From Escherichia coli (lineage in GTDB: Bacteria; Pseudomonadota; Gammaproteobacteria; Enterobacterales; Enterobacteriaceae), in the NCBI RefSeq assembly GCF_003334315.1, contig NZ_QOWR01000007.1: a stretch of DNA of 64,000 nucleotides; one strand, 5' to 3'. The notes under the pieces are model-generated. The model ran no database searches. It was not told the origin of the DNA and was given only the letters and a program-made list of their open reading frames with translations. How positions within the stretch are numbered: position 1 is the first letter of the stretch; each line of letters opens with the position of its first letter. This document shows, piece by piece, positions 37,334-37,712 of this stretch. The position numbers were made by a program, and so were the translations under genes.

Positions 37334-37342
37334 TAATAAAAG

Positions 37343-37369
37343 CACGCCACCTTCGGGTGGCGTTGTTTT
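37343..37369 (+). terminator. Rho-independent terminator after ytfP
   Basis: Stem gccacc / ggtggc closed by a UUCG tetraloop (37346-37361), followed by TTGTTTT. Confidence 0.7.
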
Positions 37370-37712
37370 ATGCGATGTATCTCGCGATTTTTTTTTGTAA
37401 CTTTTCCATCTTTTGCTTTTCTCTCCGAGCCGCTTTCCATATCTGCAATCGCATAAAAAACTCTGCTGGCGTTCACAAATGTGCAGGGGTAAAACGGGGG
37501 CACGCTTTGAACGGTGAGTATGAGTGAGGTCGGCTAACTTCCAGCAAGTGGCTATGAACAGCAAAATGGTGGTCGGGTTTGCTTGTTCTTACCGTTCAAG
37601 CCTTGCAACCGCTGAGAATAATGATGGTGGAATAGAGAGTTTATTTATCGCGGGCATAAAAAAACCCTTACTAACCGAAGCCCGGCGTTCAGGGTTATTG
37701 CGCTAGAAGAAC

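Follow-up and report, generated by a model that had tools for sequence, protein, structure and literature searches.

A chpB relic between ytfP and ppa identifies a short allele of the Escherichia coli chpSB locus, very probably derived by deletion

The window analyzed here, a stretch of 64,000 nucleotides of ordinary Escherichia coli chromosome, carries ytfP and ppa in convergent orientation on either side of a 379-bp gap (37334..37712, from the gene order and ORF list of the window; Table 1). The 21 kb surrounding this gap are 100% identical to many RefSeq genomes. In K-12 MG1655, the ytfP-ppa gap measures 886 bp and contains the chpS and chpB genes, chpB being convergent with ppa; chpSB lies at 211 bp from ytfP, and 79 bp separate the end of chpB from the stop codon of ppa (PMC5120126; also seen here). 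The initial annotation had placed chpSB upstream of ppa in K-12; the module does adjoin ppa, but it is convergent with it and lies beyond its 3' end. A search around the indel for an extended haplotype block of deep divergence was negative: the first 300 bp of ytfP are 99.7% identical to K-12, the flanks form a mosaic of 93-100% identity, and a scan of flank identity confines the divergence from K-12 to intergenic DNA.

Other differences from K-12 were observed elsewhere in the window. At 10080..18003, ~7.9 kb stand in place of ~1.1 kb of K-12 (yjfZ region, 4426611..4427692) and encode, on the minus strand, an MFS transporter (D-galactonate transporter subfamily), a 690-aa FAD flavoprotein of the fumarate-reductase / L-aspartate-oxidase type, a CoA-transferase, an enoyl-CoA hydratase, an SDR reductase and a 280-aa protein that matched no NCBIfam family. 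A TetR-type regulator (17735..18406) is found where K-12 has the ytfA pseudogene. K-12 4437496..4438720 (~1.2 kb with ytfI) has no counterpart at ~27831..27834, where cysQ nearly abuts the ytfJ region; 50 bp (47927..47976) correspond to 152 bp of K-12 between tldE (pmbA) and the cybC pseudogene; and the alignment stops ~100 bp before the end of the window (63905..64000), where K-12 yjgL begins.

The terminator scan detected an intrinsic terminator downstream from ytfP, with a UUCG hairpin at 37344..37363 (8-bp stem, six G-C pairs) that scores as a terminator on both strands. Its fold over 52 nt reaches -23 kcal/mol (z = -4.8), none of 200 shuffles being as stable, and the hairpin is kept, with a UUCG or CUCG loop, in nearly all of the 80 Enterobacteriaceae loci examined. 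Facing it, a probable ppa terminator consists, in the centroid fold, of an AACCCU...AGGGUU stem followed by a U run. As the fold energy of this region is weak evidence alone, being no better than that of shuffles (z = 0.41), the call is made only from shape and conservation: the element is near-identical in K-12, where it sits between the convergent chpB and ppa, and is recognizable in Citrobacter, Salmonella and Raoultella.

Table 1. Features of the ytfP-ppa region, with positions in the 64,000-nucleotide window
Feature	Position	Strand	Basis or remark
tamB	33210..36989		Left of ytfP
ytfP, gamma-glutamylcyclotransferase family protein	36992..37333	+	113-aa ORF; so annotated in identical RefSeq genomes; left anchor
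ytfP intrinsic terminator (UUCG tetraloop, T-rich tail)	37344..37372	+	Terminator scan
chpS upstream leader, retained spacer	37374..37496	+	Aligns to K-12 locus (L001) ~1776..1898
Left deletion junction, 9 nt GGGGCACGC	37497..37505	+	Pairwise alignments
chpB pseudogene relic	37506..~37624	+	chpB nt ~19-145, codons ~7-48
Right deletion junction, TGGTGG motif, final chpB codons	37625..37635	+	Homology with K-12 from 37625 = L001 2533
ppa intrinsic terminator, probable	37658..37696	-	AACCCU...AGGGUU stem then U run; centroid fold
ppa, inorganic pyrophosphatase	37713..38243	-	176-aa ORF; ppa in RefSeq matches; right anchor
ytfQ	38553..39509		Beyond ppa

In a pairwise alignment with the K-12 locus (L001), the flanks are collinear and 128 bp of the window stand in place of 634 bp of K-12. 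The retained leader ends 50 bp ahead of the position of the K-12 chpS start, and beyond it the K-12 operator palindrome GTTATACTTTGTATAAC, the Shine-Dalgarno sequence and the whole chpS gene are absent. The 9 nt of the left junction stand for L001 1899..2210, i.e. 312 bp comprising the promoter/operator, chpS and chpB codons 1-6, so that the window has no counterpart of the antitoxin gene that overlaps and precedes the toxin gene in K-12. The autoregulated promoter is thus deleted together with its operator, and a promoter scan of 37250..37800 returned no promoter-like site.

Directly to the right of this junction lies the chpB relic. By blastn, 37540..37604 match an internal segment of K-12 chpB (80% identity, E = 3.5e-9), and with sensitive settings the match widens to 37506..37630, at 72% identity over 116-127 nt of chpB. 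The local alignment between relic and chpB scores 48, as compared to a mean of 9.8 (sd 1.3, maximum 17) for 2000 shuffles (z = 28) and to 10 and 13 for the reversed and reverse-complement controls. The tblastn comparison that had been proposed as a check gave, for ChpB over the whole 64 kb at E <= 1, a sole match at 37529..37612 (residues 15-42, E = 0.002), and no match for ChpS over the same 64 kb at E <= 1 with default statistics; a ChpS match inside tamB (E = 0.035), obtained with an over-permissive tblastn, disappears at default settings and is due to chance. The ChpB-like peptides of the relic, FER, PASGYEQQNGGR (ChpB, PASGHEQQGAGR) and LVLTVQAL (ChpB, LVLSVQAF), lie in three different frames and in-frame stops are present.

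Homology with K-12 resumes at 37625, 10 nt before the chpB stop, and comprises the V-E-stop end of chpB (37627..37635, TAG at 37633..37635); between the relic and this point, 195 bp of chpB (L001 ~2338..2532) are gone. Note that (C)TGGTGG is present at both K-12 breakpoints, L001 2331..2337 and 2533..2538. Of the ~116 codons of an intact chpB ORF, only codons ~7-48 and the last two are therefore represented, and the similarity to ChpB concerns this fragment only. As compared to the MazEF-like type II toxin-antitoxin module chpS-chpB (ChpBI/ChpBK) of K-12, the relic is homologous, has the same position and orientation between the collinear flanks seen around the intact chpSB of relatives, and keeps the leader, but chpS, the promoter/operator, the start codon and ~60% of chpB are missing and the remainder is crossed by frameshifts and stops. 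K-12 ChpB is described as an ACD-specific endoribonuclease, which the relic cannot encode.

Several statements of the initial annotation can be assessed from these alignments. The clean UUCG-tetraloop terminator after ytfP and the lack of intact chpS or chpB in the gap (ORF list, tblastn) are both borne out. The description of the gap as ~380 bp of non-coding DNA with short, unconvincing ORFs agrees with its 379 bp and with ORFs that are broken in sister alleles, but overlooked the relic: chpS/chpB-like sequence, sought within 37334-37712, is present as a chpB pseudogene fragment, with nothing of ChpS. A scar or a direct repeat was to be looked for in the K-12 alignment; the scar (leader, relic and terminal chpB codons) was found, but the direct repeat at this site brackets esiB (see below), not the chpSB deletion.

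We then counted the alleles of this locus in 5426 complete E. coli genomes, chpSB being called intact when 80% or more of the 634 bp specific to K-12 was present at an identity of at least 95%. Intact chpSB was found in 3098 of the 5426 genomes (57%), and the scar in 2324 (~43%, esiB carriers included), ~39% having neither chpSB nor esiB. The identity of the scar to that of the window is at least 99% in 1527 genomes, 95-99% in 105, 90-95% in 689 and 80-90% in 4. The alleles are not fixed by lineage: a strain of O25b:H4-ST131 carries a chpSB 99.8% identical to K-12, LF82 carries esiB and the scar, and the BL21 derivative C41(DE3) matches the window at every position of the 161-bp segment compared (37480..37640). 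The same scar with identical junctions is present in E. albertii and in another species representative (L010). Loss of chpSB is thus old and common, and not particular to the source strain. Two further arrangements were observed. In E. coli FDAARGOS_1250 (NZ_CP069571.1, 477168..479196), the region from ytfP to ppa is 100% identical to the window except for an IS1A inside the gap. In the cerebrospinal fluid isolate E. coli N50 (L006 1..3000), a beta-glucoside-specific PTS IIABC and a family-1 glycoside hydrolase, and not ytfP, precede ppa, which may represent either a fourth arrangement or a rearrangement at the ytfP-ppa site.

The locus has been described before. In the part of their study that deals with it, Pastorello et al. 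(2013, mBio 4:e00206-13; PMC3735183) distinguish three states of the ytfP-ppa site, chpBS, esiB or neither, at frequencies of 53, 15 and 32% in 47 genomes, and report short direct repeats with partial inverted symmetry that flank esiB and are present as a single copy without it, proposing recombination at these repeats. The window corresponds to their "neither" allele, with the same locus, the same flanking genes, neither gene pair nor esiB between them and one copy of the repeat. This repeat is the ytfP terminator hairpin: in strain A37 (L005 1346..3026; also in L002 and L004), an esiB cassette of ~1.63 kb lies between two ytfP-type hairpins, GCCACC-TTCG-GGTGGC after ytfP (1346..1371) and GCCACC-TGCG-GGTGGC after esiB (~3001..3026). 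The chpB fragment is not mentioned for the "neither" or esiB alleles in that passage of the paper, and is added here together with its sharing with E. albertii. In our set, the ~1.6-kb esiB cassette is present in 188 of the 5426 genomes (3.5%), and the scar lies downstream of esiB in all three esiB strains aligned (ZLWT, LF82 and A37). The esiB-linked scar of A37 and LF82 differs by 0.8% from the short allele of KC-Dl-1 and by ~5% from that of the window, and esiB therefore most likely entered an already decayed, KC-Dl-1-like short allele rather than the one of the window.

The reverse path, in which the window allele would be secondary and derived from an esiB-plus-scar allele by recombination between the hairpins bracketing esiB, can be proposed from the duplication of the hairpin in A37, from the recombination that Pastorello et al. 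suggest in this part of their paper (PMC3735183), and from the 100% identity of 37304..37371 to A37 followed by 90% identity downstream, which suggests a breakpoint at the hairpin. We consider it distinctly improbable, as the esiB-free short alleles of E. albertii and L010 make the esiB-free scar the older one, and as the distances given above separate the esiB-linked scar from the window allele and bring it close to that of KC-Dl-1.

Does the short allele have a function of its own? Searching 36900..38600 against Rfam (E <= 1) returned nothing but an S15-leader match within ppa, at the level of chance. The RefSeq annotation of the identical genomes has no entry inside the gap, and none of its four ORFs (56-82 aa) stays open in all sister alleles, a stop or a frameshift interrupting each in at least one of them. 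Given these results and the blank promoter scan, we take the relic to be probably inert DNA between two convergent terminators. It could instead have been kept for an acquired function, as a small RNA, as a small protein (the 60-aa ORF at 37524..37706), or for the spacing or insulation of the convergent terminators: its boundaries are unchanged in E. coli and E. albertii, and the window, L010 and E. albertii all have the 60-aa ORF uninterrupted. However, this ORF is broken in KC-Dl-1 and A37, its product is 78% identical to that of E. albertii, no higher than predicted from the nucleotide divergence, and indels segregate in the relic, in addition to the blank promoter, Rfam and annotation results, so that we hold retention for function to be very improbable. 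Persistence of the relic in both E. coli and E. albertii, with no further deletion, could still hint at some constraint.

The divergence of the relic was estimated over ~125 homologous nt in a MAFFT alignment, from which the distances to genera other than Escherichia also had to be taken because blastn detected no similarity between the relic and the chpB genes of Lelliottia, Enterobacter, Pseudocitrobacter, Kluyvera and RIT691. The relic is at a distance of 28-32% from intact Escherichia chpB and of 42-55% from chpB of other genera, while intact Escherichia copies differ from each other by 1.5-5% and the relics of E. coli and E. albertii by 11-16%. A three-taxon decomposition of these distances assigns ~24% to the relic branch and ~5% to the intact branch, which roughly fits the neutral drift of a pseudogene since an event at or before the split of E. 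coli and E. albertii. Note that, as the relic is only ~120 nt long, the placement by distance and the age carry a wide error. The long branch of the relic and the small indels that segregate among the scar alleles would be compatible with evolution free of coding constraint.

To place these alleles in the family, we retrieved the ytfP locus of 80 species and determined the distance from ytfP to ppa in each. Intact chpSB begins ~214 bp past ytfP in 11 loci from six genera, namely in Escherichia (E. coli E69, E. whittamii and two other species) and, with 62-78% amino acid identity, in Lelliottia, Enterobacter asburiae, RIT691 (Enterobacteriaceae), two Pseudocitrobacter and a Kluyvera. Gaps of only 100-170 bp are found in many Salmonella, Citrobacter, Klebsiella, Enterobacter and Kluyvera, and the empty sites compared with the window measure 110-165 bp and have neither leader nor relic; they share with the window only 37343..37373 and sometimes 37649..37700, and the window, with its 379 bp, leader and relic, does not belong to them. 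A leader-like spacer is restricted to loci with chpSB or a relic (Lelliottia L033, E. asburiae L042, Pseudocitrobacter L069 and Citrobacter sedlakii L029). The 341-bp gap of C. sedlakii holds another piece of chpB (ChpB residues 64-76 and 81-110, gap positions 94..232), and Enterobacter cloacae DSM 26481 (L035) keeps ChpS residues 1-31 beside ppa (gap positions 1746..1829), behind 1.9 kb of other cargo. These two relics, whose boundaries differ from those of the Escherichia scar, are independent of it and show that chpSB decay is recurrent. Family-wide, chpSB at this site may be either ancestral, with many clean losses, or spread by recombination.

Uncharacterized cargo of 1.6-3.9 kb was also observed in the gap of many Citrobacter, Salmonella arizonae, Enterobacter, Lelliottia and Silvania (L013, L014, L018-L020, L022, L026-L028, L031, L035, L040, L043, L047, L053, L056, L082 and others). 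Cargo being found in many genera, the ytfP-ppa gap is an insertion hot spot across the Enterobacteriaceae.

These comparisons bear on the choice, left open by the initial annotation, between a module that was lost and one that was never acquired. A deletion that is recent and specific to the source strain or its clone, which the frequent loss of toxin-antitoxin loci and the ongoing change attested by the IS1 insertion in an otherwise identical genome might suggest, is scarcely credible for an allele found at 99% identity or more in 1527 complete genomes and in 90-95% versions in 689 more, with the same junctions in E. albertii and a relic ~30% diverged from intact chpB. A site that was never occupied, the 379 bp being ordinary ancestral intergenic DNA, is equally hard to credit: many Enterobacteriaceae do lack chpSB between ytfP and ppa, and the window has no intact chpS or chpB, but it contains a collinear stretch of chpB, the chpB stop region and the chpS leader, while truly empty sites have in common with it only the terminators. 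Because the relic, the terminal codons with their stop and the leader are present here and missing from empty sites, chpSB was lost from this chromosome and the alternative of a module never acquired is rejected.

We therefore favor, with high confidence, the view that the gap is the short allele of a multi-allelic ytfP-ppa spot, very probably descended from a chpSB-bearing chromosome via two internal deletions. One deletion would have removed the promoter/operator along with the entire chpS gene and the initial chpB codons; another would have taken 195 bp from the 3' part of chpB, possibly through the TGGTGG microhomology present at both breakpoints, and we infer the order and the mechanism of these events from the junctions. 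The residue would then consist of the leader, ~120 nt from chpB codons 7-48, and the gene's final two codons with the stop. Since the start codon, the promoter and the antitoxin are gone, such a relic would be non-coding and free to drift neutrally, and the gap would now act only as the convergent terminators of ytfP and ppa with junk DNA between them.

Type II toxin-antitoxin modules on chromosomes belong to the accessory genome and have an uneven distribution (review, PMC7167474).

A second chromosomal system of this type in E. coli, ccdO157, has reportedly undergone decay. Like chpSB, ccdO157 is a type II module whose intergenic position is fixed and which, depending on the strain, is intact, degraded or absent. 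They differ in toxin family and locus, and in that the chpSB decay of Escherichia is a single old haplotype found across species rather than many independent inactivations.

Intact and decayed chpSB could have coexisted in Escherichia since before the split of E. coli and E. albertii, as a trans-species polymorphism that balancing selection acting on the ChpB endoribonuclease would keep at intermediate frequency (57 and 43%), for instance if an advantage during certain stresses or phage attack were offset by a cost. We regard this as rather unlikely; the alternative is that two neutral alleles have simply been spread by recombination.

Overall, the locus represents a known and ordinary accessory-gene polymorphism, to which the scar is only a small addition, for which we claim no priority and which decides between lost and never acquired. 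Its importance beyond bookkeeping is little. The scar fixes the direction of change at a published locus and provides a further example of the repeated decay of a chromosomal toxin-antitoxin module at a fixed site, and the role of the ytfP-ppa gap as a hot spot may interest the mapping of integration sites. Strains with the short allele, including the BL21-derived C41(DE3), lack the ChpB mRNA interferase, which is of relevance when toxin-antitoxin results obtained in K-12 (e.g. with the delta-5 and delta-10 strains) are carried over to the rest of the species.
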